From contig JACPHO010000001.1 of NCBI GenBank assembly GCA_016188545.1, positions 355,324 to 419,323 on the forward strand: a stretch of 64,000 nt of DNA, read 5' to 3'. Position numbers and translations under genes: made by a program. Origin of the DNA: Candidatus Shapirobacteria bacterium. GTDB lineage: Bacteria > Patescibacteriota > Microgenomatia > UBA12405. Positions 1-55,957 of the stretch are shown here, piece after piece. The notes below the pieces were generated by a model. That model searched no databases. It was given only the letters and a program-made list of their open reading frames with translations, and had not been told where the DNA came from. Each line of letters begins with the position of its first letter. The first letter of the stretch is position 1.

Positions 1-63
1 CCGCCTTATTCATAAGTCATACATCATACTTCATAAATCAAAGTAAATTAGTTACACTGAATC

Positions 64-954
64 GTGACCAAACTAGTCAAACTTCTCTTTTTCCCCCACG
101 AGGACAATAACCATAAAGCATTTTTAATCCAACCGGGTTATATTGGCCTTCTAATTGGTGTCTATCTCTTAAACCAGTCATTTATTCGCACCCTGACAAT
201 AGCTCGACCTGGAGTCTTGGGTTATTCATCAGAAATCACCGCTCAAAAAGTTATTGACCAAACAAACGCTCGCCGTGCCCAAGCCGGACTTGCCCCGTTA
301 CTACTCAACCCAGTATTGTCTCAATCAGCCGCCGCCAAAGCAGACAATATGTTTGCCGAAAACTACTGGTCTCACAACTCTCCTTCTGGTAAAACACCAT
401 GGGATTTCTTCAAAGCAGTCAAATACCAATATTCAGTGGCCGGTGAAAACTTAGCTAAGGACTTCTACGACACCGATTCTATGATGCGAGCCTGGATGAA
501 CTCTCCAACTCACAAAGCAAATATAGTAAATACAAAATATCAAGAGATAGGTATTGGGGTAGTCAATGGAGTTCTCCGTGGAGTCAAAACGACCTTAGTT
601 GTCCAGCACTTTGGTACACCACTTTCGAGTCAAGTCAGAGCAGCTGATACTTCAAACAATCAAACAGATGAAATCGCCATCGCAACCAACGAGCCACCCG
701 TCACTGAAACCGTACTAGCTGAAGTCTCCGCTCCAGCGGTAACACCCTCGTTCATGATAAGCCCACTTCAAATCAGTCAACTTGTCGGTCTGGCTATGTT
801 TATAGTTATTATAGTCACTCTAATTATTGACATCATTTCTTCAATGAAAACCAAGAACCATCGACTGAGTAGTTCATCATTAAGTCATGTTGGTTTCTTG
901 GCGATTATTCTGATGCTTTTGCTATTTACCCGACAAGGTAATATCCTCTATTAA
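64..954 (+). CDS. CAP/SCP (YkwD-like) domain protein with C-terminal transmembrane anchor; GTG start
   Basis: Motifs NYWSHNSPSGKTPW and GENLAK are typical of the CAP/SCP-PR1 fold. The C-terminus has a hydrophobic stretch, LVGLAMFIVIIVTLIIDII. Confidence 0.55.
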   Translation: MTKLVKLLFFPHEDNNHKAFLIQPGYIGLLIGVYLLNQSFIRTLTIARPGVLGYSSEITAQKVIDQTNARRAQAGLAPLLLNPVLSQSAAAKADNMFAENYWSHNSPSGKTPWDFFKAVKYQYSVAGENLAKDFYDTDSMMRAWMNSPTHKANIVNTKYQEIGIGVVNGVLRGVKTTLVVQHFGTPLSSQVRAADTSNNQTDEIAIATNEPPVTETVLAEVSAPAVTPSFMISPLQISQLVGLAMFIVIIVTLIIDIISSMKTKNHRLSSSSLSHVGFLAIILMLLLFTRQGNILY

Positions 955-9321: not shown

Positions 9322-10462
9322 TTACTATGGTTGCTGCAATCATTTCCGGAACATTTTTATCCAGAATACTTGGCAACAAATTATTAGCGGTTAGGTTCGG
9401 TAAATTATATTCATAAATAGCCTTAGCTGTCGCAAGTTTTATCTCTATCGTCGCTTTAGTAATCTTGGCCGCCAACAAACCCTTAAATACTCCCGGGTAT
9501 GCCAGAGCGTTATTGATTTGGTTATCAAAATCAGATCTACCAGTTGCTACTATCATTGCTCCAGCAACTTTTGCCAAGTCAGGCATAATTTCTGGAGTCG
9601 GGTTAGCCATCGCAAACACAATTGGGTCTTTGTTCATTGATCTGATCATATCTTCTGTCAGTGAGTTGGGTGCAGATACTCCTACAAAAATGTCAGCTCC
9701 AACTAATCCCTCTTGGATGGACATGGTTTTTGTCTGTCCAGTCAGTTGAGCCATCTCCATCTTATATTTATCCAAATCAGTTCTATCAGTCGACACCAGG
9801 CCTTTTGAGTCAAACAATTTGATATCACTAACCGGCAGTTCCGACGCCTTAATAAGTCGGGTTATTGCATTTCCAGCCGCCCCCGCTCCAGTAATCACCA
9901 CTTTTAAGTTTTTACTTTTAACTTTTAATTTTTTATTTTTTATTTTTATCGCCCCCATTAGTGCTGCTAAAGTCACAATTGCTGTTCCATGTTGATCATC
10001 GTGAATAATGGGGATTGGCAACTCATCACTCAATCTTTTTTCAATTTCAAAACATCTTGGTGCCGAAATATCTTCTAGATTTATGGCTGCAAAGTTTACC
10101 GATATTGCTTTTACAATTTTGATAATTTCTTCAGTGTCCTGAGTGTCAAGACAGATTGGGAAAGCATTTAGCCCAGCAAACTCCTTAAAAATTACACACT
10201 TACCTTCCATCACTGGAAGTGCTGCCTTGGCACCTATATTTCCAAACCCAAGAACTGCGCTTCCATCAGATATTACAGCTACCATTTTTCCGGCAATTGT
10301 ATATTCCCTTACCGCATCAGGATTATCTTTAATTACCATGCATATCTTACCTACATTTGGGGTGTAAATATTTGACAAATCTTCCTTTGTATTTACTTGC
10401 ACTGTCGGCACAATCTCTAACTTACCAGTATTTTTTTTATGAATTTCAAATGTGTCTGTCAT
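9308..10462 (-). CDS. NAD(P)-dependent malic enzyme (small bacterial type)
   Basis: Motifs LSNIYTPNVGK, VISDGSAVLGFGNIGAKAALPVMEGK, HDDQHGTA and the Rossmann motif VITGAGAAG are present. There is a lysine-rich insert, KIKNKKLKVKSK. Confidence 0.8.
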   Translation of the reverse strand: MTDTFEIHKKNTGKLEIVPTVQVNTKEDLSNIYTPNVGKICMVIKDNPDAVREYTIAGKMVAVISDGSAVLGFGNIGAKAALPVMEGKCVIFKEFAGLNAFPICLDTQDTEEIIKIVKAISVNFAAINLEDISAPRCFEIEKRLSDELPIPIIHDDQHGTAIVTLAALMGAIKIKNKKLKVKSKNLKVVITGAGAAGNAITRLIKASELPVSDIKLFDSKGLVSTDRTDLDKYKMEMAQLTGQTKTMSIQEGLVGADIFVGVSAPNSLTEDMIRSMNKDPIVFAMANPTPEIMPDLAKVAGAMIVATGRSDFDNQINNALAYPGVFKGLLAAKITKATIEIKLATAKAIYEYNLPNLTANNLLPSILDKNVPEMIAATIVTSVK

Positions 10463-10855: not shown

Positions 10856-11066
10856 ATTCTGAGTGTATTATAGCTGTTTTAGAAGTTCTAAGTTACCAGA
10901 GATCAAGGCATCTTTTTTCTCTCTAGACCACCCCTTTATTTGTTTTTCCCTTCTCATAACATCAACTCTTGAAGAATATTCTTCTTTGTAAACTTTGCCC
11001 CATAAAGCGAGTGCTGTTGGTGATCAACAATTCTCAGCGAGCTCTCTAGGCGAGTCGAAAGGTTAA

Positions 11067-11189
11067 GGCTGTACGTACAAATTCGAACGTATTTTCAAAA
11101 TGGACTCTCGCCCCGCATCGCCGCGGGTGGGGGCGCGGCGAAAAAAGCGGGGCTCGATTGAACAAAACTGTCGGCTCGAAACGCAAAAA
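11067..11189 (+). repeat. mosaic GC-rich structured repeat, copy A (P1 imperfect palindrome + nested GC hairpin + tail)
   Basis: GGCTGTACGTACAAATTCGAACGTATTTT is followed by the nested hairpin GCCCCGC[ATCGCCGCG..CGCGGCGA]AAAAAGCGGGGC. The tail is CTCGATTGAACAAAACTGTCGGCTCGAAACGCAAAAA. Related copies lie at 13423..13520 and, inverted, at 16166..16280. Confidence 0.7.
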
Positions 11190-11348: not shown

Positions 11349-12179
11349 TTGCTTACAGGTGTGGTTGTATTTATTAAAACAATTGGTATTTGGGAAAAAT
11401 TGATCAATGTCATCAAAAATATCTTCATATTTTTGACCATAGTATTGCCATTACCATTTTTTAACATCCCTGTCTATTTTTGGATAATTTTACTTTGCGT
11501 AATTTTCTGGTTATTCAATCAATCAAGACTTTTAAAATTAGTTTCTGGAGAATTTTATGACGACTTTAGAAGTGGATTAAATAATTGGGAGTATGGCGGA
11601 GAGGGTTGGAAGACTGAATTTGAAAATGGCACCCCCTTGTTGAGTGTATCTGAGTCTCAAGATGGCGGAATAAGTAAAAAAGGGTTTAGTTGGAATGATT
11701 ATCAATTTAGTTTTAAAACTAAAATAATAAGTAAAAATTCTGGATGGATAATAAGGGCTGAAAATAGAAATAAATATATAATGATACAACTGTGGATGGA
11801 GAAATTGGACAGCCCAAAAATAAGACTACATTATAGAGTTCCTCCAAGTAGTGAAAGACAAATTCAATGGATAGTTGCGGAGGAAATAGCCATTAGTTCA
11901 GATAAAAAAATTAAGATTCTTGAGTGGGTTGACGTAAGGATAGCAGTACTGGGAAGTACTATTGATATTTATCTTAATAACCAACATTGTGCACATTACT
12001 TTATACCAGATCCAATCAGGTGGGAGAATAAATTTATAACGATTGCAGAAGAAGGAAGACCGAGTGAAAAAACATATATTGATTCCATCAATTATCCTGT
12101 GGGAAGAATCGGTTTTAGGTGCTCAGGTGGTGCAGAGCACGCACATTTTAGAGAAGTCAGAGTAAAACCGCTGCTTTGA
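11349..12179 (+). CDS. membrane-anchored DUF1080/LamG-like (3-keto-disaccharide hydrolase-like) domain protein; TTG start
   Basis: Two N-terminal TM helices are followed by a domain with a GWK..FENG pattern. The C-terminus GRIGFRCSGGAEHAHFREVRVKPLL resembles the DUF1080 C-terminal G.IaLQ.H....FRNI.IK.L signature. Confidence 0.45.
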   Translation: MLTGVVVFIKTIGIWEKLINVIKNIFIFLTIVLPLPFFNIPVYFWIILLCVIFWLFNQSRLLKLVSGEFYDDFRSGLNNWEYGGEGWKTEFENGTPLLSVSESQDGGISKKGFSWNDYQFSFKTKIISKNSGWIIRAENRNKYIMIQLWMEKLDSPKIRLHYRVPPSSERQIQWIVAEEIAISSDKKIKILEWVDVRIAVLGSTIDIYLNNQHCAHYFIPDPIRWENKFITIAEEGRPSEKTYIDSINYPVGRIGFRCSGGAEHAHFREVRVKPLL

Positions 12180-12203: not shown

Positions 12204-12253
12204 ATTGTTTTCGTCTTTGTAGACTCATCAGTCCCGCAATTCGGGATAACAAT
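12204..12253 (-). ncRNA. hammerhead ribozyme motif, type III (HHR-3)
   Basis: Minus-strand RNA, 5' to 3': AUUGUU-A-UCCCG[AAUUG]CGGGA-CUGAUGA-GUCU[ACAA]AGAC-GAAA-ACAAU. Conserved core nucleotides CUGAUGA, GAAA, U16.1 and H17 are all present. Stems I and II are closed and stem III is open. Confidence 0.7.
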
Positions 12254-12277
12254 TTCCTCTTGGCACAACCAACGCTT

Positions 12278-12297
12278 GGGTCCCCTTGAGGGGACCC
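12278..12297 (-). other. perfect 8-bp GC hairpin between the stop codon and HHR-3 (module hairpin)
   Basis: GGGTCCCC-TTGA-GGGGACCC. No U-run follows on the minus strand, so it is not a terminator. It lies 40 nt 3' of the stop of gene 12338..12976. Confidence 0.6.
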
Positions 12298-12337
12298 ACT
12301 CGTCGTTTTTTTTGTTGTGCCTTGAGGGCGATAGGAA

Positions 12338-12976
12338 TTACTGCACAATGATGGTGACTGTAATCGTTTCTGTTGTTGCAAGATTGACATAATCTTCGCC
12401 AGTTACGATAATCGTGAATGTCTGCCCAACAGCATCTGCGGGTGCATTTGCTTTCAGTAATCCCGATTGAGCAGCATAGAAATCATCTGAGGTAATCCAA
12501 CTCGGAAGGTTTGAGTATTCGTAATGACCATTCCCATTGGGGATGTTTGAACCGATGGATATCCAAGATTCTTGTCCAGCACTCACGACAGCTGTAGCGG
12601 TTAAGTCATAGTGCACTGTGTGAGGTATTTCAACTGTGTACACCAGAGTGATAACTTCATCACCTGATATGGAGGTTGCCTCGCAGGTGAATTCGCCTTC
12701 AACATCAGCAGAAGGGTATGAATCAATTGTTTGACTACCCAATGTCAGCCATGAGGGGCAGTCGGAAGACAAATTGTAGCCACCTGTAGTTGCAAATCCA
12801 GCAACTTTCAAATCCAGTGACTTGCCGAGACCTGCGGCAACTCTGATGTATTGAGTGCTGGTGATAACTGAGGCAGTGTCTTGGGGGGTGCTTGTGGCGG
12901 AAGGCGCGCAAGCAGTCATGATAATCGTCATGGCTACGAATGCAAAGAGCAGGGAACGTACGGTATTGCGGGACAT
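12338..12976 (-). CDS. secreted lipoprotein with tandem Ig-like/beta-rich repeats; visibly GC-richer than surroundings
   Basis: There is a signal peptide with a lipobox-like IMTAC. Repeated SWLT/SWIT segments are present. The likely start is the internal ATG at 12976 (MSRNTVRS). Its base composition is atypical for this window. Confidence 0.5.
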   Translation of the reverse strand: MSRNTVRSLLFAFVAMTIIMTACAPSATSTPQDTASVITSTQYIRVAAGLGKSLDLKVAGFATTGGYNLSSDCPSWLTLGSQTIDSYPSADVEGEFTCEATSISGDEVITLVYTVEIPHTVHYDLTATAVVSAGQESWISIGSNIPNGNGHYEYSNLPSWITSDDFYAAQSGLLKANAPADAVGQTFTIIVTGEDYVNLATTETITVTIIVQ

Positions 12977-13238
12977 GGCTTCTCCTTTTGAAGTCGAACA
13001 AAATTGTGGGAAATACTTGGACTCTTTATTAGAAAACAACCGAGTTGTTTTTACTAATTAAAAAGCCCAAATACTTGCTTAAATCGCCATTCCTATCCTA
13101 ATTATTAAAGTGCATCTGAACAGAAAATACATAGCTAATATGTAAACCTATTCGTCCATATTTTAACATAACTAGACATAAAAAACAATGTTATAAGATA
13201 TATAGAATATTTTCTTAATCGCGAGCGTAAAAATAATT

Positions 13239-13260: not shown

Positions 13261-13332
13261 CAAAACCGTCGGCTCGAACTACTTTTTATTGGATAAAACC
13301 ATACTCCCAAAATATCAAAATGACGGATTCTT

Positions 13333-13520
13333 GGCGCTGGCCAATCCTGTGCGCCTGTCCGCCTCTGGCGGAGGCGTGGCCTGCGCCATGGCAAAAATCA
13401 TGCGATTTGCAAAAACTGTTGAGGCTGTACGTACAAATTCGAACGTATTTTAAGAAATTATAACAGTCGCCCCGCTCGTCCCGTCGCCGGTCGGGACGAA
13501 AAACGCGGGGCTCGATTGAA
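13333..13520 (+). repeat. mosaic GC-rich structured repeat, copy B (P3 long hairpin + CGATTTGCAAAAACTGTT linker + P1 + nested GC hairpin variant 2)
   Basis: P3 is TGGCGCTGGCCAATCCTGTGCGCCTGTCCGCCTCTGGCGGAGGCGTGGCCTGCGCCA at 13333-13390. P1 is at 13423-13451. The hairpin GCCCCGC[TCGTCCCG..CGGGACGA]AAAACGCGGGGC is at 13466-13520. Confidence 0.7.
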
Positions 13521-16165: not shown

Positions 16166-16280
16166 TTTTGCGTTTCGAGCCGACAGTTTTGTTCAATCGA
16201 GCCCCGCGTTTTTCGTCCCGACCGGCGACGGGACGAGCGGGGCGATGTTAAAATATTTGAAATACAGTTCGAATTTTTCG
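16166..16280 (-). repeat. mosaic GC-rich structured repeat, copy C (inverted orientation)
   Basis: Its reverse complement reads P1-like AATTCGAACTGTATTT, then hairpin variant 2 (identical to copy B), then GGGGCTCGATTGAACAAAACTGTCGGCTCGAAACGCAAAAA (tail identical to copy A). Confidence 0.7.
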
Positions 16281-16322
16281 GTACAATGCCGACAATTCGT
16301 GAATGTCATGATTTTTTGATGT

Positions 16323-16381
16323 GGCGCTGGCCAATTCTGTGCGCCTGTCCGCCTATGGCGGAGGCGTGGCCTGCGCCACAT
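16323..16381 (+). repeat. P3 long GC hairpin element, second copy, abutting tRNA-Gln
   Basis: TGGCGCTGGCCAATTCTGTGCGCCTGTCCGCCTATGGCGGAGGCGTGGCCTGCGCCA. It differs from the 13333-13390 copy at only two positions, both in predicted unpaired regions. The same CGATTTGCAAAAACTGTT linker follows. Confidence 0.7.
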
Positions 16382-16407
16382 CAAAATCTTTCGATTTGCA
16401 AAAACTG

Positions 16408-16854: not shown

Positions 16855-17455
16855 TATCTTCTTCCCCGTGTCCAGGTAGAACTATAACCTCTCCCGGTAA
16901 TTTAATAAGCTCTCTTAAACTTTTTCGTAAATCAGACATCGAGGAATAGTTATGATCAGTACTTCCTATCCCACCCTCCGCAAACAGGGTATCCCCGCTA
17001 AACAATAATTTACCACTGGTATCATAAAAACAAACCCCACCAGGCGTATGACCGGGGGTTTTCAGTACCTTCAGCTTCTCCTCCCCAAGTAATATGTTTT
17101 TTGCGTTACTCAGGTCAACATCTGTCTCAGCTATGTCTAGCGTGTCTACTCTATGTTTCAAAAAATGTTCTGCTGTTTCTTTTTGTCGCTTAAGTAAAAA
17201 CATGTCGAGTTTGCTTACTCCGATAGGAATGTTGTACATCAATTTTAAGTCCATAGCTGCCAACAAGTGGTCAAAGTGCCCGTGTGTCGCCAGTATCATT
17301 AGTAGCTTCAATTGGAGCCTCTGAACCTCATCGCTAATCTCAGTCGCAGCATCAGCCGGGTCAATAATTACTCCTTCTTTTGTTTCATCATCCCAGACTA
17401 TATAACAGTTGGTTTCTAGTTCACCCAAGACCAACTTTTCGTATTTCAACATCAT
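16817..17455 (-). CDS. MBL-fold metallo-hydrolase (glyoxalase II-like)
   Basis: The HxHxDH motif ATHGHFDH is present, with downstream His/Asp ligands. Confidence 0.75.
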   Translation of the reverse strand: MMLKYEKLVLGELETNCYIVWDDETKEGVIIDPADAATEISDEVQRLQLKLLMILATHGHFDHLLAAMDLKLMYNIPIGVSKLDMFLLKRQKETAEHFLKHRVDTLDIAETDVDLSNAKNILLGEEKLKVLKTPGHTPGGVCFYDTSGKLLFSGDTLFAEGGIGSTDHNYSSMSDLRKSLRELIKLPGEVIVLPGHGEEDTILNSSRRLGSL

Positions 17456-17504
17456 TATATTTTACTTTTTATTTTTTATTTTTGAATTTTTGATATACTT
17501 CACT

Positions 17505-22191: not shown

Positions 22192-22250
22192 CCCACAGCC
22201 CCCGTCTTTTGTTTTTTACTTTTGAATTTTTACTTTTGAAATTCTCAGCT

Positions 22251-24833: not shown

Positions 24834-25516
24834 GATGTAAGTTGTATAAACTTTTTCTCGAGGTTTTTTATTTTTGAAGTCGTCTCATCCAAAACAATTT
24901 TTCCACTATTAATTATCAATAGTTGACTGCAAATAGCTGCTGCCTCAGGAAGTATATGTGTCGATAGAATAACCATCTTCTGCTTAGCCAGTTTCTTAAT
25001 AAGTTGTCTTATTTCAATTATCTGCTTGGGGTCCAGACCAGTTGTCGGTTCATCTAGTATCAGTAGGTCTGGATTGCCAATAAGTGCGGCAGCCAACCCT
25101 ACTCTTTGGCGATATCCCTTGGACAGGGTTTCTATCTTACTCTCGTACACATTAGCCAGTCCACATTCCGTCGTCACCCTCATTGTTTCCATAACACAAT
25201 CCTCAGCCCCTTTTATTTTTACGATGTATTCCAAATATTCCCTGACCAACATATACCCGTAGAGTGGATTATTTTCAGGTAAATAGCCGATCTTCGATTT
25301 GTGAAGAAGTGATTTTAGATTAACTTCCTTCATATCCCAAGTCACCGACCCGCTATCTGCTCCAAAATAACCCGTTAAAATTCTCATCAATGTTGTCTTA
25401 CCAGCACCGTTTGGGCCAAGTAGACCAGTAACACTCTTGTCTTTTATTTCAAAACTGACATTATCAAGTACTGTCTTGTCTCCAAATTTTTTACTTATAT
25501 TTTTAACACTCAACAT
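24830..25516 (-). CDS. ABC transporter ATP-binding protein (GldA-like)
   Basis: Walker A GPNGAGKTT, the signature LSKGYRQR and Walker B LLILDEPT are present. Confidence 0.85.
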   Translation of the reverse strand: MLSVKNISKKFGDKTVLDNVSFEIKDKSVTGLLGPNGAGKTTLMRILTGYFGADSGSVTWDMKEVNLKSLLHKSKIGYLPENNPLYGYMLVREYLEYIVKIKGAEDCVMETMRVTTECGLANVYESKIETLSKGYRQRVGLAAALIGNPDLLILDEPTTGLDPKQIIEIRQLIKKLAKQKMVILSTHILPEAAAICSQLLIINSGKIVLDETTSKIKNLEKKFIQLTS

Positions 25517-25520
25517 GTTT

Positions 25521-25898
25521 TTACTTTTTACTTTTTACTTTCGAATTTTCTATCCTAAGTATCTTTTTTATCACAACAAAAACCAGTAGTGCAATAATCA
25601 AAAAGTTTAAAGTAGATCCCATCATATTACCGATCTTAAATTCCGATCCAGCTATTGTGAATACAATTTCTCTCCATGAACCGGTAGGAGATATAATCCC
25701 TATTATTGGCATAATCATATCATTGGCAATCGATGTAGTTAGATCCTTTACTGCCCCGGCAATCACCACCCCGATAGCCAGTTCCAATACATTATAGTTT
25801 TTCAAAAAATCCAAAAACTCATTTTTACTTTCACTCGCTTTCTCGATAATAATTTTAGTTCTTCCTGCTTTAACTTTTACAACTTTTGTTTTTTCCAT
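25521..25898 (-). CDS. mscL: large-conductance mechanosensitive channel MscL
   Basis: Motifs FLDFLKNYNVLELAIGVVIAGAV, DMIMPIIG and a C-terminal hydrophobic helix are present. Confidence 0.75.
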   Translation of the reverse strand: MEKTKVVKVKAGRTKIIIEKASESKNEFLDFLKNYNVLELAIGVVIAGAVKDLTTSIANDMIMPIIGIISPTGSWREIVFTIAGSEFKIGNMMGSTLNFLIIALLVFVVIKKILRIENSKVKSKK

Positions 25899-26231
25899 GA
25901 CAAATTATACAACCTGTTCGGTAGGTTAGTTTACCCTGAGCGAATGAAACGAGTCGAATGGGTCATTGCGCTTTGCCCGCCGAAGCGAAGCGTAGGTGGG
26001 AGCGAAGGAATGAGCGTGGCAATCTTCTGTAATTCTGCCAGTGGGATTAACTTTTCCCACTATTCCAAATTCTGTTTACTTTTGAATTTATTTTTTTTGC
26101 CTTATTCTCGTTTCTATCCTATTCCAGTTACTAGTTACTAATTACCAGTGACATCTCACACCTTATGTTTCTTGTTTTTATTTTTAACTTTTTACTTTTA
26201 ACCTTTTACTTTTGTACTTAGTTTTTTTGTT

Positions 26232-26291
26232 AATGATTTCGTCCTCCGAATCGAAGGACTCATCAGGCCCGATACCTATCGGACAATCATT
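26232..26291 (-). ncRNA. hammerhead ribozyme motif, type III (HHR-1)
   Basis: Minus-strand RNA: AAUGAU-U-GUCCGAU[AGGU]AUCGGGC-CUGAUGA-GUCCUUCG[AUU]CGGAGGAC-GAAA-UCAUU. All invariant core nucleotides are present. Stem III is a 6-bp AAUGAU/AUCAUU duplex. Confidence 0.75.
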
Positions 26292-26308
26292 CACTAAGCA
26301 CACCGCGG

Positions 26309-26333
26309 CTGGCAGGGGATAAACCCCTGCCAG
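26309..26333 (-). other. perfect 10-bp GC hairpin between the stop codon and HHR-1 (module hairpin)
   Basis: CTGGCAGGGG-ATAAA-CCCCTGCCAG. It lies 30 nt 3' of the stop at 26363 and is not followed by a U-run. Confidence 0.6.
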
Positions 26334-26362
26334 TAGCATGTGCGCTCAGCGCTTTGGATAGG

Positions 26363-27085
26363 TTATTGGTAAGGAGTTGCGCAGAATACCGCATTTTCGT
26401 GATCAGTATGTTCATCTCTGTCAAACTCGTAGTAGTTATCCCACTTCTGCGAGGCGACATTAATATATGGACTTTCAATCGTTATTACTGGCATTGGGAT
26501 TGCCATTTCGTTTGAATAACCAACTTGGTCATCGAACAGCATCCATCTGGCGTCGTTTACGTATAAAAGGCTTCCTTTGGCTTCACGCGTGTTCGTGTCA
26601 GTATGCATAACAATACTATTATCGTAGCAAGTCAAGCTTCGTTGATTTGTTTCAGGAGCTGTTCTAGGCAAAGCATCAAAGTAGGCATAAACCTCAGTCA
26701 CGACTGTTTCTTTGTGCTCGGCAAACGCCCAGATCGTCATCCTATACAAGCCTGACTTTCCAGTCGTCCATTCAAAAACATCGAAATCCCCCGGTTGAAT
26801 CTCAAAATGGCCATAGTCTTCATCCATCCACATTACACTTCTCCAGGTAATTCTCTGGGGGTTGACGTTTTCTTCAGATTTATCAATTCCATCTCCTTCA
26901 GGTGCAAAGTCGATTTTTGCATAATAAAGAAGGGGGTCCTCGGATGAATTTGGATGGATAGTTGCTTTGCAAGTTTTGCGGTCACAGATTATCTTTGCAT
27001 TTGCAGGCATTGCTTTCCCACATGCTGAAAGAAACAACCCAATTGTTGCAAAGAACAATACAGCTAACAGTTTTCTTGTTTTCAT
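26363..27085 (-). CDS. secreted hypothetical lipoprotein
   Basis: The signal peptide MKTRKLLAVLFFATIGLFLSACG has a lipobox-like LSAC. No known domain. Confidence 0.45.
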   Translation of the reverse strand: MKTRKLLAVLFFATIGLFLSACGKAMPANAKIICDRKTCKATIHPNSSEDPLLYYAKIDFAPEGDGIDKSEENVNPQRITWRSVMWMDEDYGHFEIQPGDFDVFEWTTGKSGLYRMTIWAFAEHKETVVTEVYAYFDALPRTAPETNQRSLTCYDNSIVMHTDTNTREAKGSLLYVNDARWMLFDDQVGYSNEMAIPMPVITIESPYINVASQKWDNYYEFDRDEHTDHENAVFCATPYQ

Positions 27086-27138
27086 TTCAATCTCCTCTGT
27101 TTAGATAGAATATTTCAAACGACCTTTTAGGGTCATCA

Positions 27139-27441
27139 TCAGGCACGCCTGGAATTACGAATTACCGCTATGATCAAAAATCCCCCAAGCAAAATCAACC
27201 CCAGTGATACAAGGAAAATCCCTTCAAACCCCCAGGTAATTTCCCATAACATTCGTTCAATTGAGACCTTGGTTATTGGAAAAAACTGCCAAATTAGCCA
27301 AATTTTTTCGCGACAATTTATCGCCGCGTTGCCATTGGGGCAATTTGGCCACAACCCCATTGAGGTTACCCACAACAGGGAACCGGCAACCATCGAGTAA
27401 AGCCCCGCTAAAATTCCAAAAAAACTTACAAATCTTTTCAT
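27139..27441 (-). CDS. small hypothetical membrane protein
   Basis: The likely start is the ATG at 27441 (MKRFVSFFGILAG), preceded by AAGGAG. It ends in the triple stop TGATGATGA. Confidence 0.4.
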   Translation of the reverse strand: MKRFVSFFGILAGLYSMVAGSLLWVTSMGLWPNCPNGNAAINCREKIWLIWQFFPITKVSIERMLWEITWGFEGIFLVSLGLILLGGFLIIAVIRNSRRA

Positions 27442-27585
27442 CTCACATTCTCCTTTTTGTATATTTTTAGACACACGGTCAATTCCCCTTTTGGGGTAAC
27501 TGACTAGTGTGTCTAAAACTTTTTCCTATCCAAATTTTTAAAGAACTAAACCTACTTCAACACGCAATGTATTGAGTTAGTTGCA

Positions 27586-27646
27586 AATGATTTCGTTCTT
27601 CAAATCAATGAAGAAGCTCATCAGTCCGCCTTGGGCGGAAATCATT
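27586..27646 (-). ncRNA. hammerhead ribozyme motif, type III (HHR-2)
   Basis: Minus-strand RNA: AAUGAU-U-UCCGCC[CAA]GGCGGA-CUGAUGA-G(C)UUCUUC[AUUGAUUU]GAAGAAC-GAAA-UCAUU. The core and stem III match HHR-1. Stems I and II differ but remain paired. Confidence 0.75.
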
Positions 27647-27666
27647 CACGGCATACAATCGCAGGT

Positions 27667-27686
27667 GGGGAGCCAGAAGGCTCCCC
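27667..27686 (-). other. perfect 8-bp GC hairpin between the stop codon and HHR-2 (module hairpin)
   Basis: GGGGAGCC-AGAA-GGCTCCCC, 23 nt 3' of the stop at 27709. Confidence 0.6.
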
Positions 27687-27708
27687 AAATCCTGGATTGC
27701 GCCGCGCT

Positions 27709-28200
27709 TTACGGAGTTTCGATAATGGAGTTGACACAGTATAGTGTTTCATCTTGATAGAAACGGCAGTCCGCCAATTTTTCAACCTTGTATCCTGTAA
27801 ATTCCGATATCCAACCGGATGTATTATCGTCTTGCGTTGCAACTTCCCGCATCCAAACTTCTTCTCCATACAGAAGATAAACAATATGAACTCCGTCTGG
27901 ACTCCAGAAGAATTCAGTCACAGAGGTGACTATTAGGACCAAACCACCTGGAATTGTAGGATTGACTTGCAACACCGAAACCCCTGTTTCAAGGTTTTTA
28001 AGTATAAATGCTTCCTGTCCTTTAGTCGAAAACTTACTTTCCCCATGTTGATAAATCAACTTTGGTGCTTCGGTGGCTACAGGCATTGCAGTAGGGCTGA
28101 TTGCTGGCCGATGATCGCCATTATTTATGGTCGATGCAAGTAATGCAACTGCGAGACCCAAAACAATGTGCCACCATTTTAAACCTAGTCGAGTTTTCAT
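27709..28200 (-). CDS. secreted hypothetical protein
   Basis: Signal peptide MKTRLGLKWWHIVLGLAVALLAS. No known domain. Confidence 0.45.
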   Translation of the reverse strand: MKTRLGLKWWHIVLGLAVALLASTINNGDHRPAISPTAMPVATEAPKLIYQHGESKFSTKGQEAFILKNLETGVSVLQVNPTIPGGLVLIVTSVTEFFWSPDGVHIVYLLYGEEVWMREVATQDDNTSGWISEFTGYKVEKLADCRFYQDETLYCVNSIIETP

Positions 28201-28279
28201 CTCTTCTCCTTAAATATAATTCCTCTGACAAAAAGCTGTCAGGCCAATTGAACTTCCCGAATCATTTGATTCGATCGTT

Positions 28280-28726
28280 TTAGCGCTCTGATTTTGCTTT
28301 TGGTGTGCAGGTTGGTATGGTTCTTCCAGCAGTTACAACACAAACCTGTGAAGAGGTATCGTAGGTCATTTGACCATAAGCTACCCACTTCGTCGAACCT
28401 GCTACGAACCAAGGTTCAGTCCAACAACTCCAGTCAAGTGTATTGCGATCATTCAATACTGCTATACACAATGATTGACTGTTGTGGTTCTGGTAAACAG
28501 CAGCTTGCATAATCTGCCTACCAGAAAAAGGAGACATCTGAGATGTTCCGTCAATATAGACCCCCTTCGGCTCTTCTGAAAATGGATTTTCGATGTGAAT
28601 ATTTTTTACTGTTTTAATTCCCCATGTTTTTATATCATCATCAAATCCGACCCCAACAGATACTGCAGCCAAAATCATACAAGCACAGACGCCGATCAAA
28701 ATTCCAATAACCAACAGTTTGTTCAT
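28280..28726 (-). CDS. secreted or membrane-anchored hypothetical protein (Cys-rich)
   Basis: N-terminal hydrophobic helix and several Cys residues. No known domain. Confidence 0.4.
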   Translation of the reverse strand: MNKLLVIGILIGVCACMILAAVSVGVGFDDDIKTWGIKTVKNIHIENPFSEEPKGVYIDGTSQMSPFSGRQIMQAAVYQNHNSQSLCIAVLNDRNTLDWSCWTEPWFVAGSTKWVAYGQMTYDTSSQVCVVTAGRTIPTCTPKAKSER

Positions 28727-28968
28727 CTCAACTCTCCTTTGAGTTTCAAATAGTCTTTGGATACACAGTTAACTTCCCCCTTTGGGTGAAATTAATCGGT
28801 GTACCCAAATCTTCTCTACTCCGTAATTTTTTAAAGTGCCAAGTAATCGGCATTACACAGCAATTGTGTAGTTTGATTACTTAGCAAATACTAGCAAAAA
28901 ATAACCCAAATGTCAATATTATGGGCTGTAATTTAAAGTAAAAATTCAAAAGTAAAAAGTAAAATAAC

Positions 28969-29319
28969 TTATGACTTAAGTTTATTTACAATAGAACTTA
29001 AAATTAGGCTTACTTCTTTGGTTTCTTGATATAAATTTGCTGATTTCACCCTTAGCTTTGGCTCAGCCTCAATTAGCATTATTATCCAATATAGGGTTTC
29101 TCGAGCTTCTTTTCTCGCAATACCAACTTTGTGTATAAAATCATTTTTACTTTCTGAATTATTGGCTTCACAATAATTTGCCCCAATACTAGTACCTGCA
29201 CGAATAAATTGACTGATCAGTGGCAAAGTAATCGTATTTTTGGGCACCAACTTTGCGAAACATATGACTTGCTTACCCAAACTTTCCAGTCTCTCAATAA
29301 GATCAAATTTTGTTGCCAC
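28969..29319 (-). CDS. four-helix-bundle protein (23S rRNA intervening-sequence protein family)
   Basis: The pattern IGANYCEA...KEARETLYWI is characteristic of this family. Confidence 0.65.
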   Translation of the reverse strand: MATKFDLIERLESLGKQVICFAKLVPKNTITLPLISQFIRAGTSIGANYCEANNSESKNDFIHKVGIARKEARETLYWIIMLIEAEPKLRVKSANLYQETKEVSLILSSIVNKLKS

Positions 29320-29370
29320 GTATTAATTCTAACAAGTTTAGTTTTTACTTTTTATTTTTTACTTTTGAAT

Positions 29371-30270
29371 TTATGCATTAAAGCTCCTCTCCATCCAATG
29401 TCGGTCTATCTCCACTGTCATTTCCAAAAATACTTTACGTCCAGACATTAGCTCCAATTCCTTTCTGGCGTTAAATCCGATTTCTTTTATTTTTTGCCCG
29501 TTCTTACCGATAATCATTTTCTTGTATCTATCTGCATTAGTGTTGATAACTGCCTTAATATAGATCAATTTTCCCTTATCTTTTACCTCTTTTACTTCAA
29601 CGTTAATGGTATAAGGCAGCTCTTCTCGTAAAAACAAATATGCCTTCTCCCTGATTATCTCTCCGATATACTCACGTGAACCCATTCCCATAAGTAGGCC
29701 TTTCTTTTCAGCCATCACACCCAGCTCGCTGTTTATTTCTTTCTCAGTTTTTTCGGGTAAAAAGTCAAAAATTAGGTTTAAAAGTCCCTTGACATTCTTT
29801 TCTTTTATAGCGCTAATACTGATGACCTTGTCAAATTCTTCCTCCAAGTAGTTATATTCAGCCAAGTGATCCTTGGTCCCAATAGCTTTATCTGTTTTGT
29901 TGTATACCAATATTTTTTTTGAAGGCATTTTACGAACTAATCCAATTACCTTATTCTCTTCTTCAGATTTCTCTCGGGAAATATCGACCAAGCAGACAAT
30001 TACATCCTTCCTGGCTGTTGACTTGGGCGCTTCCAAATTGATGTTCTTTGACATCAAGTCTTCTACTTGGTTAATGATTCCGGGTGTATCAGTAAAAACA
30101 ATCACTCCTTTCTCATTTCGGAACACCACTTGACTACTTTTTCGGGTTGTTTGCGGTAGGGGAGAAGTAATCGCTACCTTTTGGTTCATCAGCGCGTTTA
30201 GTAGAGTTGATTTACCGGTATTTGGTCGACCTACAATCGCGACACGACCAAACTTTAACTTATTTATCAT
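29371..30270 (-). CDS. era: GTPase Era
   Basis: The G1 motif GRPNTGKSTLLNAL and DTPG are present, with a C-terminal KH domain. Confidence 0.9.
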   Translation of the reverse strand: MINKLKFGRVAIVGRPNTGKSTLLNALMNQKVAITSPLPQTTRKSSQVVFRNEKGVIVFTDTPGIINQVEDLMSKNINLEAPKSTARKDVIVCLVDISREKSEEENKVIGLVRKMPSKKILVYNKTDKAIGTKDHLAEYNYLEEEFDKVISISAIKEKNVKGLLNLIFDFLPEKTEKEINSELGVMAEKKGLLMGMGSREYIGEIIREKAYLFLREELPYTINVEVKEVKDKGKLIYIKAVINTNADRYKKMIIGKNGQKIKEIGFNARKELELMSGRKVFLEMTVEIDRHWMERSFNA

Positions 30271-34683: not shown

Positions 34684-37005
34684 TTACATTTTTTCCAGTG
34701 TCCCAATTCCCAAAATATTTAGGCCATCCCTAATAATTTTTGCAGTTACAGCCGTCAAAAACACTCGCCGTCCCTCCTGAGGATCCCCAATAACTCTACA
34801 CTTCCCATAAAACTCATTATATTTTCTAGCCAAATTTAGTAAATATTCCGCCAACACCGCCGGGTTATATCTTTCACCAGCCTCGACAATCTTTTCCTTA
34901 AAAATATAAAAATATCGCAGCAGGGGAGTCTCATTCTCATCAAACCCTTCGCTTGTTTTGATGTTTGATGTTTGATGTTTGGATTTTAATATAACACTCT
35001 TACATCTGGCATAAGTGTATTGTAGATATGGTGAAGAATTTCCCTCCATGCTCATAACCCTATCCCAGTCAAAAACGATATCCTTTTTAGGGTCAGATGA
35101 CAAATCATTAAATTTCACCGCTCCTATAGCTACTTTTGCAATCGACACATTATCATTTTCAGGAGCGATACTTTTTGCCATATCCATGGCTTTATCAATT
35201 ATATCTGATAAATGGATAGTGTCACCTTTGCGAGTTGAAAATTTTCCGTCTTTCCAGCGAATCAAACCGTGGCCAATGTGGACAAAATTTGCCTCCCAGC
35301 CTACTAGTTTAGCCGCCGCGAATACTTGCTTAAAGTGCAATGTCTGCTCTGAGCCAACCTCATAAATAATCAAATCCGGGTTCCATTTTTCTTTTCTAAA
35401 TTTAATCGTTGCCAAATCTCGAGTAAAATATGTCGTCGCCCCATCCGATTTTAATATCATTGCCGGTGGTAAATTTGGCACTTCCACTATCTCTGCGCCA
35501 GCACTTATTTTACTCAATTTTTTATCCCTAAAAATCTGCTCGATTTCTGACAACATTTTTAAATAGAACTCCTCACCATAAGCATTATCAATTTTTACGC
35601 CCAACATTTCATAGACCCTGTTAAATTCTTTAATGGATATATCGATACATTCTCGCCAAATTTTTCGTGCCTCAACATCACCCTTTTCTAGCTTGGCAAA
35701 CCAGTCTCTACCCTCATCAATTAATGTTTTATCATTTTCTGACTCAGCGTGAAATCTGACATAAAGCTTTTCTAGTCCTTCTATTGTGCTTTCCATTCCC
35801 CAATGTTTTATCGCTGTTATCATTTTTCCAAATTGTGTACCCCAATCACCCAAGTGATTATCGCCAATTGTATTCCAACCCAACACTTTGTAAATGTTAT
35901 ACAAAGCATGTCCAATATTGGTTGACCTTAGGTGGCCTATCCCAAAAGGCTTCGCGATATTTGGTGATGAATATTCAACAATTACTGTTTTTCCTTTTCC
36001 GATGTTTTCTAATTCGTTTTTATACATATCACTCAAAATATAATTTGATTCATCAATCAGTACACTTTCTTTTATCCACAAGTTGCTAAATCCAGCTACA
36101 GTATCAACTCTTTCAATAACATCTAAATCGGAAAAATTAGCTATACCCCTTACTGCATAATCCCCAAATTTTTCCACTGCTGGGTGTTCAACTGGCATCT
36201 TTGCCACATCAAATATTTGTTTGGCAATGCCATAATATTTCTTTGCGTTAACAATCTTCTTTTTTTTACTTTCAATAATATCCTCAACTTTTTTTGATAC
36301 AAAATCAATTTCGACCGTAGGGTTATCCTTATCCAGCCACAATATCTCGAATGTTCCCCCAAACAATCCCTTAACTTTTTGTACAAATTCATTAGCTATT
36401 TTTTTTATCAAATCATCATTTATCCCCCTAAACCCATCCATCACGAAGTAACCGTTAGTCGACTCGCTCGTGAGTTTTGTGCGCTCACATTGTCGCCAGT
36501 TCAGCGCTCTAGTTGACAGGTCCAGTCCGTCACCCCACACTAGTTCACCTTCCACTGCCGATTTACTTTTTATTGCTCCAATTGGAAACCATTTTTCTCC
36601 ACCTTTGGCAATAAACAATCTAAAATTCCCATATACTTTGTCCAAGTCCTCACCTCCAAACGGAATAATATTGGTGATACTATACGAATTGTATAAATTT
36701 ACCATCGGGTTAATATCCGGAATCAGTCCGCCTTCCAAAACCCTTTTTGATAGTGCTACATGAGCCGGTGCAAAAACTTTTGGGTCAGTTCCAAATTCAC
36801 TGAAACACTTTTCGTAAGCTGTTACTTTTTCTAACTCAAAAAAACTTTCGCTGGTGTGTTGTTTTTTAAGACTTTCCTCGGCACTTCTCAAGAGTTCGAC
36901 TGATTTTTCAACTGACTGGTGGTTGTCAAATCCATAAATAATCGGTATCGCTACTACTAGGTTCGGAAACTTTTCAAAAACACTATTATCAATTTCAAAT
37001 TTCAT
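34684..37005 (-). CDS. argS: arginine--tRNA ligase with an N-terminal B3/4-like domain extension of about 230 aa
   Basis: The ArgRS core has SSPNIAKPFGIGHLRS (HIGH-type) and the Add-1 N-domain. Residues 1-230 resemble the PheT B3/4 editing or tRNA-binding fold (PMVNLYNSYSITNIIPFGGEDLDKV, ALNWRQCERTKL). Confidence 0.8.
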   Translation of the reverse strand: MKFEIDNSVFEKFPNLVVAIPIIYGFDNHQSVEKSVELLRSAEESLKKQHTSESFFELEKVTAYEKCFSEFGTDPKVFAPAHVALSKRVLEGGLIPDINPMVNLYNSYSITNIIPFGGEDLDKVYGNFRLFIAKGGEKWFPIGAIKSKSAVEGELVWGDGLDLSTRALNWRQCERTKLTSESTNGYFVMDGFRGINDDLIKKIANEFVQKVKGLFGGTFEILWLDKDNPTVEIDFVSKKVEDIIESKKKKIVNAKKYYGIAKQIFDVAKMPVEHPAVEKFGDYAVRGIANFSDLDVIERVDTVAGFSNLWIKESVLIDESNYILSDMYKNELENIGKGKTVIVEYSSPNIAKPFGIGHLRSTNIGHALYNIYKVLGWNTIGDNHLGDWGTQFGKMITAIKHWGMESTIEGLEKLYVRFHAESENDKTLIDEGRDWFAKLEKGDVEARKIWRECIDISIKEFNRVYEMLGVKIDNAYGEEFYLKMLSEIEQIFRDKKLSKISAGAEIVEVPNLPPAMILKSDGATTYFTRDLATIKFRKEKWNPDLIIYEVGSEQTLHFKQVFAAAKLVGWEANFVHIGHGLIRWKDGKFSTRKGDTIHLSDIIDKAMDMAKSIAPENDNVSIAKVAIGAVKFNDLSSDPKKDIVFDWDRVMSMEGNSSPYLQYTYARCKSVILKSKHQTSNIKTSEGFDENETPLLRYFYIFKEKIVEAGERYNPAVLAEYLLNLARKYNEFYGKCRVIGDPQEGRRVFLTAVTAKIIRDGLNILGIGTLEKM

Positions 37006-37020
37006 ACTTAATATTAAACC

Positions 37021-37064
37021 AAAAACCCCGCCTTTGGGATTAAATAATTAATCACAAGGACGGG
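37021..37064 (-). terminator. intrinsic terminator-like hairpin plus U-run in the argS leader (attenuator candidate)
   Basis: Minus-strand RNA CCCGUC-[loop with GAUUAA/UUAAUC sub-hairpin]-GGCGGG-G-UUUUU. It lies 16 nt before the argS ATG. Confidence 0.4.
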
Positions 37065-37092
37065 ATTTATCTGCCGGTAGGTAGATTTCTCT

Positions 37093-37104
37093 CGTGGTAC
37101 CACC
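37093..37104 (-). promoter_or_regulatory. T-box-like sequence in the argS leader
   Basis: Minus-strand AAAGGUGGUACCACG compares with the T-box consensus AGGGUGGNACCGCG. The UGGU would pair with a tRNA ACCA 3' end. Confidence 0.3.
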
Positions 37105-37261
37105 TTTATTTTTCTCTTTTGAGTTTGTACGGTTCACTCCGTTTCCGATTTTGCGGAAGACTCCACCTTCGCGACAGGCTTCGTTGTCTTTGGAAATTAT
37201 ATACTATTCATTGTCATCTGGGTAGAATCTAACTAATCTCCACACGAAACACACCTAATAG

Positions 37262-51966: not shown

Positions 51967-52693
51967 ACCGCCACTTGTTTCAGTCATAACTTGTGTCAAA
52001 AATAACGAAGTTTATCTCCACAAATGCCTTAGTTCGATAGCTTCTCAAACTTACCCCTATATCGAACATATCATCGTTGAAGGACACTCCACCGATACCT
52101 CGCTTCAGATAGTAAAAAAGTATATTTCCGACCATCCACATAAAAACATTAAATTGTATATACGTCCAGCCAAAGGAATAGCTAATGCCCTAAATTATGG
52201 TATTTCCAAAGCATCCGGCAAGTTTGTCCATATTGTTCATTCCGATGATTATTACTATTCCCGTTATTCGGTTAGTAAGGCTGTCAAGGTTTTTAAAAAC
52301 AATCCAGGTGCTACTTGGATTGTAGGTAATCATTTACTGGATGTTGACGGACAAGTCGTTACTCTTGAGAACAGACTTTTAGCCAAAAAATTGGGTAAGT
52401 ATCTGATCTGGCTTTTACCATGGATGTCACACCAAAACATGTTTTACGACAGAGAGGTCTACGAGCATGGTGGTTTGTATGATGAAAGCTATGGCAATTC
52501 ACTCGATTATGAACAGTGGCTTCGCCTAATAAAAAAAATCCCAATTTTGGTAGTTAACGAAAAATTCAGCGTCTTTCGGGTTCACCTTAAAAGCACCACT
52601 TTTAACCCCATGAACTTACCTAGGTTGCTTTCTGAAAACTTTAGGGCAGTAACTTCCAACCTACTTTCTCAAAAGCTCCCTCATTCTAGCTAA
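51956..52693 (+). CDS. family 2 glycosyltransferase
   Basis: VSVITCVKNNE is the nucleotide-sugar binding start. DxD-like HSDDYY and the ED motif are present. Confidence 0.65.
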   Translation: MVTKPPLVSVITCVKNNEVYLHKCLSSIASQTYPYIEHIIVEGHSTDTSLQIVKKYISDHPHKNIKLYIRPAKGIANALNYGISKASGKFVHIVHSDDYYYSRYSVSKAVKVFKNNPGATWIVGNHLLDVDGQVVTLENRLLAKKLGKYLIWLLPWMSHQNMFYDREVYEHGGLYDESYGNSLDYEQWLRLIKKIPILVVNEKFSVFRVHLKSTTFNPMNLPRLLSENFRAVTSNLLSQKLPHSS

Positions 52694-55493: not shown

Positions 55494-55584
55494 TCGGCAA
55501 AAACCCCAAATTTTTAGTATTACCGAAACCGATCATTTTTTCTGTTGTTTTTATAAACATATTATTAATAAATAATAAACTTAG

Positions 55585-55656
55585 TACGGAGGAGGGGAGT
55601 TGAACCCCTATAAAACTGTTTTACAGACAGTTGCATTACCGGCCTGCCCCCTCCGT
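55585..55656 (-). tRNA. tRNA-Tyr (anticodon GUA), short variable arm
   Basis: Reverse complement: ACGGAGG-GG-GCAGGCCGGTAATGCA-ACTGT-CTGTAAA-ACAGT-TTTAT-AGGGG-TTCAACT-CCCCT-CCTCCGT. The 7-bp acceptor stem is perfect. The D-stem is short. Confidence 0.7.
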
Positions 55657-55660
55657 AGAA

Positions 55661-55717
55661 CCAAAAAAGCCCTCGCCTTTGCAAAACCAATAAATGGCTT
55701 CACAAGGGTGAGGGCTT
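55661..55717 (-). terminator. intrinsic terminator on the minus strand, immediately 5' of tRNA-Tyr
   Basis: The 11-bp stem CCGUGAGAAGCCCUCACC...GGCGAGGGCUU (one G-U) is followed by UUUUUUGG on the minus strand. Confidence 0.5.
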
Positions 55718-55957
55718 CTCACGGTACCACCTTGTTTCGTAAATAAAAAAAGCTCCCACAGGAGCTCGATAATTATTTACCTTATTATCGAGTACTTGTT
55801 TACCTCGCCTCTGGCGGACTTGCAGTGATACTCTAGCTCTATTTAGGGAGCTCCCTTACCGATTTTGTCGGTATGCTCAGAGGGTGTATTATGTCCTCCT
55901 TAACGCGTTCCAAACTTAGTCAAGTTTATCACGAGGAAATTTCTTGTCAAGAATATA

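Follow-up and report, generated by a model that had tools for sequence, protein, structure and literature searches.

A hairpin-hammerhead module in the 3′ trailers of exported-protein genes of Candidatus Shapirobacteria

Hammerhead ribozymes and two-part hairpins

The 64 kb stretch of a Candidatus Shapirobacteria genome (Patescibacteria/candidate phyla radiation (CPR), Microgenomates) analysed here, called the window below, contains three genes for exported proteins that are each followed by a GC-rich hairpin and a hammerhead ribozyme. The three hairpin-hammerhead units, named m26, m27 and m12, lie on the minus strand, and all module coordinates are given for this strand. We have little doubt that they are genuine, conserved hammerhead modules of 3′ trailers.

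The ribozyme of m26 is located at 26232-26291 (-) and is composed of stem III AAUGAU/AUCAUU, stem I GUCCGAU/AUCGGGC and stem II GUCCUUC/GGAGGAC, with cleavage predicted 3′ of 26285 (triplet AUU). That of m27, at 27583-27649 (-), has a stem III identical to that of m26 and a bulged C in stem II, and its predicted cleavage is 3′ of 27640 (triplet AUU). The m12 ribozyme lies between convergent genes at 12204-12253 (-), with cleavage predicted 3′ of 12247 (triplet UUA). Minimum-energy folds and a descriptor scan placed three helices round the core, stems I and II closed by short (3-6 nt), variable loops and stem III open. Our own type III descriptor found the copies in the real sequence and gave no match in 100 dinucleotide shuffles of the window.

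In a preliminary description of this DNA, a stop codon, a perfect GC hairpin and a type III hammerhead were said to follow one another at each site, with no U-run behind the hairpin and a spacer of 15-25 nt before the ribozyme. Direct reading of the minus strand gave the same order at all three sites, and the ribozymes proved to be real type III hammerheads, with complete core, covarying stems and no shuffle matches. In m26 the stop codon TAA (26365-26363) is followed by 29 nt, the GC stem (26333-26309), 17 nt and the hammerhead; in m27 the stop codon (27711-27709) by 22 nt, the GC stem (27687-27666), about 17-19 nt and the hammerhead; and in m12 the stop codon (12340-12338) by 40 nt, the GC stem (12298-12277), 23 nt and the hammerhead. 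The supposed spacer is really the 3′ strand of an outer helix, which pairs with sequence 5′ of the GC stem.

Each GC stem is thus only the inner part of a two-part helix of about 25 bp, of which the outer stem makes 12-15 bp. The long hairpin of m26 (26292-26351, -) has an outer stem of 12+3 bp with four G-U pairs and a perfect inner stem of 10 bp, CTGGCAGGGG/CCCCTGCCAG, at 26309-26333; that of m27 (27650-27706, -) has an inner 9 bp GC stem at 27666-27687; and that of m12 (12256-12327, -) has an inner 9 bp GC stem at 12277-12298 and an A8 bulge in its 5′ arm. The base immediately after the m26 hairpin (26351-26292) opens stem III, and in all ten distinct copies of the unit known to us (three here and seven elsewhere, see below) the gap between hairpin base and stem III is 0-3 nt. 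Whole-module minimum-energy folds consist of the long hairpin and the three-way junction.

Counting stems of at least 7 bp on both strands, we found only six perfect GC-rich hairpins in the window; three precede the ribozymes, and an unrelated repeat family accounts for the others. The GC-rich stem-loop of an intrinsic terminator is present (9-10 bp, perfect) and its U-tract is absent: no U-run comes after any of the GC hairpins, as had been stated, the flanks being CCGCGGUG, CCUGCGAU and AGCGUUGG, and a terminator scan listed none of the three. The surrounding 20 kb shows no excess of canonical terminator-like sites (19 against 15.2 expected). The long hairpin contains 17 G-U pairs and no A-C, therefore selection has acted on the sense RNA strand and not on duplex DNA. 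Read on the plus strand, the m12 hairpin (12277-12310) is followed by CTCGTCG and then T8; because T8 comes after the hairpin in this direction, its DNA may also terminate the convergent plus-strand gene at 11349-12179.

Conservation of the module

Seven further copies of the hairpin-hammerhead unit were identified in related metagenome contigs and in one Saccharibacteria metagenome-assembled genome (MAG), making ten distinct copies in all. Among the loci reached through relatives of MscL and Era, copies were found at L036, L059 (two), L060, L065 and L067. The Saccharibacteria MAG (L019) carries two hammerheads, each with a GC-rich hairpin directly 5′, which flank a gene for a membrane protein of 149 amino acids (aa). 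This was the only real locus among 34 obtained by a stem-III-specific pattern scan of reference genomes, the other 33 being chance matches in coding DNA. Since ten of ten independent copies have both parts, the association of hairpin and hammerhead is no accident.

The core CUGAUGA + GAAA (C3-U4-G5-A6-N7-G8-A9, G12-A13-A14) is invariant in ten of ten copies. In all copies the pairs A15.1-U16.1 and G10.1-C11.1 are also invariant and position 17 is never G; the cleavage triplets read AUU, AUU, UUA, GUA, GUA, GUA, AUC, AUC and AUU. A covariance model of hairpin plus hammerhead detected m26, m27 and m12 at E = 4e-33, 4e-12 and 7e-06 and no further copy in the window, and in 421 kb it recovered every copy with E = 7e-36 to 2.5e-05. 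It also matched L039, a relative in which an m27-like hairpin (GGGGGGCC..GGCTCCCC ACCTGCGATTGTGTGC) without ribozyme, at 2-131 (+), is followed by a T-run and then by the mscL promoter.

Standard pairs occupy 97.0% of the base-pair cells in the alignment of eight copies against 75.6% after shuffling, and none of 500 shuffles was as high; the alignment was fitted to the model and thereby favours the structure, the copies nonetheless being very different in sequence. Both sides were changed in 32 of the 40 pairs of these eight copies, and when the partner was slid by 1-3 columns the pairing dropped to about 40%. Within the ribozyme, pairs changed on both sides amount to 7/7 in stem I, 4/5 in stem II and 3/6 in stem III, which was matched by 0/500 shuffles. 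With all ten copies, compensatory changes were seen at 37/40 pairs, and the invariant pairs are only those that the hammerhead requires.

The two modules of L059 share a repeat of 84 nt. A rule that such a repeat ends exactly at the cleavage site was considered and dropped; it holds for the two L059 modules and fails for the pairs of the window and of L019.

Predicted pairing of leader and trailer

In every Shapirobacteria cassette (7/7), a cassette being one to three genes ending in the module, the 5′ leader has a complementary strand of 9-17 nt in the trailer that lies, at equivalent positions, on the stop codon or shortly 3′ of it. We call the resulting pairing the closing helix. In the first cassette of the window, which ends in m27, the leader strand UUACGGAGU (28818-28826, -) can pair over 9 positions with the trailer strand ACUCCGUAA (27709-27717, -), which includes the stop codon. 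The second cassette, flanked by m27 and m26, has the leader strand UUUGGAUAGG (27525-27534, -) and the trailer strand CCUAUCCAAA (26353-26362, -), directly after the stop codon at 26363-26365, with 10 positions paired. In the m12 cassette the strands are GAUAGGAAU (13089-13097, -) and AUUCCUAUC (12330-12338, -), the latter at the stop codon, with 9 positions paired. Among the relatives, the leader strand is UCGGAUAGGAAA in the first L059 cassette (12 paired with its complement), UGGAUAGGAA in the second (10 paired), UAGGAAUUAAUU in L060 (12 exact, about 17 with one bulge) and UUGGAUAGGA in L065 (10 paired). The first cassette of the window is a compensated variant, with the motif replaced on both strands and the pairing kept.

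The closing helix is part of the minimum-energy fold of all six full-length RNAs folded (0.95-1.5 kb), with a mean pair probability of 0.86-0.97. For the 1355 nt RNA reaching from m27 to m26 in the window, where the helix is likewise in the minimum-energy fold, this value is 0.96. The motif TGGATAGGAA with up to two mismatches is not enriched across the window (70 against 76 expected); only its exact, positioned copies matter.

Between the leader pairing strand and the Shine-Dalgarno sequence of the second cassette there is a leader hairpin, UUUUAGACACAC...GUGUGUCUAAAA, at 27465-27518 (-), with an inner CCCC/GGGG stem, which is kept in L059. Another conserved leader hairpin, GGGCUUUU-AAUUAGUAAAAA..UUUUCUAAU..AAAAGCCC, is common to L060 (11062-11125) and the m12 cassette (13020-13075, -), where it stands just 5′ of the Shine-Dalgarno sequence, and it is unlike the leader hairpin of the island cassettes of the window.

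The Shine-Dalgarno/start region AAGGAGAAUGUGAGA (27441-27455, -) of the m27-to-m26 RNA is paired, in its minimum-energy fold, with the CUCCUU-containing end of the 240 aa open reading frame (ORF) at 26371-26385 (-), these being positions 185-199 and 1255-1269 of the excised RNA. This modelled pairing might be due to chance or might serve translational control.

Genes of the cassettes and their island

The first cassette of the island begins with a gene for an exported protein of 148 aa (28280-28726, -) and has, upstream of m27, one for a signal-anchored protein of 163 aa (27709-28200, -). Its promoter TTGACA-17-TAGTAT is located at 28916-28888 (-), upstream of the leader strand at 28818-28826. 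In the cassette flanked by m27 and m26, the first gene (27139-27441, -) has a Shine-Dalgarno sequence and encodes a membrane protein of 100 aa, and the gene directly upstream of m26 encodes the 240 aa lipoprotein (26363-27085, -; lipobox LSAC). The module also follows the genes for homologs of this lipoprotein in L060 (243 aa) and L065 (271 aa); a word-based homolog search with the 240 aa protein returned only itself, and these two were found by synteny. The three orthologous genes retain the module with compensated stems. Upstream of m12 there is a lipoprotein gene of about 212 aa (MSRNT..., lipobox MTAC; 12338-12976, -).

The other proteins encoded upstream of modules are a signal-anchored one of 217 aa in L059, a multipass membrane protein that occurs in L059 (229 aa) and in L036, and two Saccharibacteria proteins. 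No Pfam match was obtained for the proteins upstream of modules. The genes upstream thus encode lipoproteins, signal-anchored or membrane proteins throughout, in agreement with the earlier suggestion that the module serves secreted-protein genes. The same description had raised the possibility of a portable cassette end, and the check for this in the window and its relatives places the unit behind at least seven unrelated orphan genes.

A canonical terminator was found about 10-45 nt 3′ of the ribozyme in L036, the second L059 module and L065. We assign the unit to the gene upstream of it because mscL has its own promoter, m12 lies between convergent genes, and terminators follow the ribozyme. 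In the tandem arrays (m27-m26 in the window and the pairs of L059 and L019), the upstream ribozyme occupies the place which the promoter has in first cassettes, and it is also the 5′ boundary of the next cassette.

The window has a chromosomal gene content, including lon, era, mscL, an ABC transporter with a GldG-like subunit, uvrA and uvrB as well as Arg-, Tyr-, Lys- and Ser-tRNA ligases. No match to known phages was found for the window by blastn, and no PHROG match among the island genes. In relatives the gene order is lon, era, variable orphan genes, mscL, ABC transporter, ytxH and obg. The interval between era and mscL is a hypervariable island (window 25899-29370, -; L059 10320-13236; L060 10904-12939; L065 3121-5425): among relatives with 87-96% Era identity it holds different orphan genes, and in other relatives it has none. 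Blastn revealed conserved leaders and trailers and coding parts that are not conserved. Relatives with variable genes in this interval carry one or two modules, and no ribozyme was found in genomes where era directly adjoins mscL or ytxH. Among the loci examined, modules are confined to genomes with at least 87% Era identity to the window, plus the one Saccharibacteria MAG, and they are absent from relatives whose Era is 79-80% identical. The scanned island genes included no recombinase, integrase or transposase.

The boundary towards mscL is marked by an extended -10 promoter, TGTATAAT (25896-25913, -), outside the module, 5 nt before the ATG and kept in L036, L037, L039 and L059. Because the extended -10 box is only 5 nt from the ATG, the mscL mRNA is probably leaderless. 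At the start of the island, beside era, a protein of 116 aa (28969-29319, -) belongs to PF05635 ("23S rRNA intervening sequence protein"), the fold family of Avd of diversity-generating retroelements. A retroelement of this kind, suggested by this gene, was rejected: there is no template/variable pair among the direct repeats and no reverse transcriptase among the ORFs scanned. A-rich intergenic repeats, AAAAGUAAAAAGU on the minus (coding) strand, are found at 9892-9949, 17443-17492, 22197-22246, 25502-25551, 26154-26229, 29326-29375 and 37103-37130; the copy at 26154-26229 sits directly 3′ of the m26 ribozyme.

Other elements of the window

The remaining perfect GC hairpins belong to a repeat family of about 100-190 nt, 88-92% identical, at 11062-11162, 13332-13520 and 16213-16386, with a two-part GC hairpin TCGTCCCG...CGGGACGA inside GCCCCGC/GCGGGGC. 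Two direct copies bracket a 2.3 kb region with a DUF1080-type gene, m12 and the m12 lipoprotein gene, and the third adjoins tRNA-Gln. None of the three copies has an Rfam match; the family might mark the boundary of an island or represent a small RNA.

A T-box-like leader (55701-55912, -; 45 bits against an Rfam gathering score of 93) lies directly upstream of tRNA-Tyr(GUA) (55584-55656, -), which is followed by a 418 aa ORF (54237-55493, -) and then by a fusion of a YbaK domain and an archaeal-type tyrosyl-tRNA synthetase (52661-54223, -). A T-box ahead of a tRNA gene is an unusual order. A weaker T-box-like match of 25.8 bits (37053-37193, -) is located just upstream of argS (34684-37005), which in relatives bears an N-terminal B3_4 domain.

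Discussion

A cassette comprises one to three genes whose products are exported or membrane proteins, and its trailer contains, from 5′ to 3′, a leader-pairing strand, a two-part hairpin of about 25 bp and a hammerhead. Its anatomy, conservation, covariation, strand specificity, gene context and portability are observed, and considering them we lean towards the view that the unit is a portable module which matures the mRNA 3′ end and insulates cassettes from one another. The hairpin lacks a U-tract, and RNA polymerase would continue past it into the ribozyme. The hairpin would shield the folding of the ribozyme from the variable upstream coding sequence and would stack on stem III. Self-cleavage 7-10 nt beyond the hairpin would then free the mRNA from the next cassette, from the terminator or from read-through that is antisense to a convergent gene. 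The mature mRNA would end in the long helix and a short tail with a 2′,3′-cyclic phosphate, its trailer paired to its leader, and 3′ exonucleases and tailing should act poorly on such an end. In tandem arrays the cut would leave the 5′-OH end of the next cassette buried in hammerhead stems I and II, and the polycistronic transcript would therefore become separately stable units. Cleavage in vivo, the chemistry of the ends, stabilisation and what the closing helix does are inferred in this way.

The preliminary description had proposed a 3′ end defined by the ribozyme where no terminator is present. The position of the module in the 3′ untranslated region (UTR) of exported-protein genes bears this out in part; as a stand-in for a terminator the ribozyme does not hold, and because canonical terminators follow it in relatives, it would trim the transcript rather than replace termination.

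Several observations speak against such a maturation module. Rfam at its gathering threshold reported no ribozyme at the three sites; in a permissive scan Hammerhead_3 appeared at all three with 31.4, 26.7 and 23.4 bits against a gathering score of 48.5 (E-values 0.009, 0.2 and 1.7 for m26, m27 and m12, already multiplied by 4227 families), and the copies of L019 and L036 had no match even then. This low score reflects the seed of the model and not the motif, every structural feature of the class that can be checked on sequence being present. The triplets of the window (AUU, AUU, UUA) are also not the fastest-cleaving ones, and stem II of m27 is bulged. For fast cleavage at the Mg2+ level of cells, a hammerhead depends on tertiary contacts between loops I and II or on a pseudoknot. 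As for the closing helix, shuffle tests of the leader/trailer complement in single cassettes were modestly significant (0-27/500), the strands are mostly one conserved motif, GGAUAGGAA/UUCCUAUCC, which could be two inverted copies of a protein or DNA site, and the Saccharibacteria copies are without it. The hairpin can serve alone, because L039 has it before a T-run with no ribozyme. Finally, the gain from trimming is not obvious where a terminator already follows the ribozyme.

The lone hairpin of L039, with a T-run behind it, also suggests a division of labour in which the hairpin is a working terminator or stabiliser without U-tract and the hammerhead gives read-through RNA a 5′-OH for decay, as in the glmS ribozyme/RNase J pathway, so that the next or the convergent gene would be spared interference. 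The lack of enrichment of terminator-like sites and the position of m12 facing a convergent gene fit this idea. It is nevertheless unlikely: ten of ten ribozymes abut the hairpin at 0-3 nt, which makes one folded unit, unlike a terminator plus a separate element; the downstream 5′ end after cleavage is paired in stem I and would be poorly accessible to a 5′ exonuclease; and the downstream RNA in arrays is the mRNA of the next cassette, which should not be destroyed. A DNA-level boundary, with the inverted repeats of 9-17 bp and the long palindrome as recombination or inversion sites and the hammerhead as a passenger, would explain why different orphan genes occupy the era-mscL interval in close relatives while leaders and trailers stay conserved, why ORFs are bracketed by inverted repeats, and why two L059 modules have the 84 nt repeat in common. 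But the G-U pairs without A-C in the long hairpin point to selection on one RNA strand, the hammerhead core is invariant with covarying stems, all cassettes seen are in sense orientation, and neither a recombinase, integrase or transposase among the island genes scanned nor attC-type core sites were found, which leaves this explanation improbable. Integron attC sites in particular were rejected, the outer stems, read directly, not fitting RYYYAAC/GTTRRRY, with no recombinase among the scanned island genes and selection on the RNA strand. That the modules are selfish or decaying ribozyme repeats, spread with a repeat family and having no host role, is hardly credible against a perfectly conserved core, compensatory changes in all five helices across diverged copies, and a constant position relative to stop codons and leader complement, even if most bacterial hammerheads have no known function (PMC3088659) and the clade is narrow (genomes with at least 87% Era identity and one Saccharibacteria MAG, with absence at 79-80%).

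For internal cassettes only, the RNA between two hammerhead cuts might be closed to a circular mRNA, its ends, which can rebuild a hammerhead, held by the leader/trailer helix and by a stem III re-formed from the halves of the two ribozymes, and joined by RtcB or by hammerhead reversal. Three cassettes lie between two direct hammerheads whose stem III strands are compatible, and five have a single ribozyme. The stem III strands of m27 and m26 are identical; in the excised 1064 nt RNA of L059, stem III re-forms between the ends in the minimum-energy fold; and in L019 the cross-pairing needed for circles is kept via G-U, where the irrelevant combination would be a C-A mismatch. The duplex between tail and upstream ribozyme was equalled by shuffled tails in 6/300 (window) and 38/300 (L059) cases, the closing helix is present, and eukaryotic retrozymes offer a precedent for the circularisation of RNAs flanked by ribozymes (PMC4918200, PMC7229834). 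On the other hand, five of seven Shapirobacteria cassettes have a 3′ ribozyme only and still keep the closing helix, the likeness of stem III may just reflect common descent, no RtcB gene was found, though no search aimed at one was made, and circular or spliced products from clustered bacterial hammerheads went undetected (Perreault et al., PMC3088659). We judge circles to be an outside chance. Pairing of the post-cleavage 3′ tail with the leader start in first cassettes was also tried and was no better than with shuffled tails (17-254/300). We might speculate, at long odds, on a natural "Tornado-like" system in CPR bacteria, in which doubly flanked cassettes would be excised, clamped and ligated to exonuclease-proof circular mRNAs for surface proteins; if true, these would be the first ribozyme-made circular mRNAs in bacteria.

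Returning to a 3′-end maturation and insulation module, thousands of bacterial hammerheads are known and their roles are largely unassigned (PMC3088659). In open-access full text, with most subscription papers outside its scope, we found no paper linking hammerheads or other ribozymes with Patescibacteria, CPR, Saccharibacteria or Microgenomates, and in open-access full text no relevant paper on roles of hammerheads in 3′ UTRs or mRNA stability in bacteria. The hammerhead itself is of a known kind, and the composite of hairpin, hammerhead and leader/trailer pairing provisionally looks undescribed. Its fixed context turns the question of what bacterial hammerheads are for into specific predictions, namely exact 3′ ends at three coordinates, a terminal cyclic phosphate, an mRNA level dependent on the core and compensatory rescue of the closing helix. 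The module occurs in organisms with very small genomes and would be a natural counterpart to engineered ribozyme insulators; it also flags a hypervariable island of surface-protein cassettes in Shapirobacteria.

Relation to known RNA elements

The module shares with the type III hammerhead (Rfam RF00008, clan CL00010) the full core, the three-way junction with open stem III, the NUH triplet and covarying stems. It differs in being sub-threshold, located in a CPR chromosome and always fused to an upstream hairpin stacked on stem III. Clustered hammerheads of prophages, the closest case described, flank single genes or short blocks, and processing to gene-length mRNAs was proposed as their role (Perreault et al. 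2011, PMC3088659). Several hammerheads flank genes here too (m27/m26 and the pairs of L059 and L019), but without a prophage or integrase context, in the vicinity of era, lon, mscL and an ABC transporter. Unlike those clusters, the module also has a fixed position after the stop codon, an obligatory two-part hairpin, a leader/trailer complement and exported proteins as cargo.

Circles have been demonstrated for retrozymes and viroid-like RNAs, eukaryotic retroelements of 0.3-1 kb that encode no protein (PMC4918200, PMC7229834). The doubly flanked cassettes are like them in having two direct-repeat hammerheads, a compatible stem III and, as predicted here, unit ends of 5′-OH and 2′,3′-cyclic phosphate, whereas the unit of the module is a protein-coding bacterial cassette, mostly with one ribozyme, and its circle is hypothetical.

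In RiboJ insulators, an engineered hammerhead in the 5′ UTR is combined with an extra hairpin downstream of it, and their behaviour is independent of the flanking sequence. The present module is natural, lies in the 3′ UTR and has its hairpin upstream of the ribozyme. Intrinsic terminators and stem-loops of the repetitive extragenic palindromic (REP) type resemble it as GC-rich stem-loops after the stop codon, and like them it would block 3′ exonucleases; in contrast to them it has no U-tract, its helix is much longer and two-part, its 3′ end would be made by the predicted self-cleavage, and a true terminator follows in some relatives. In icaR of Staphylococcus aureus, a strand of the 3′ UTR pairs with the 5′ leader of its own mRNA on the Shine-Dalgarno site. 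The closing helix of the cassettes described here lies instead about 60-200 nt upstream of the start codon, away from the Shine-Dalgarno sequence, and is coupled to a ribozyme.

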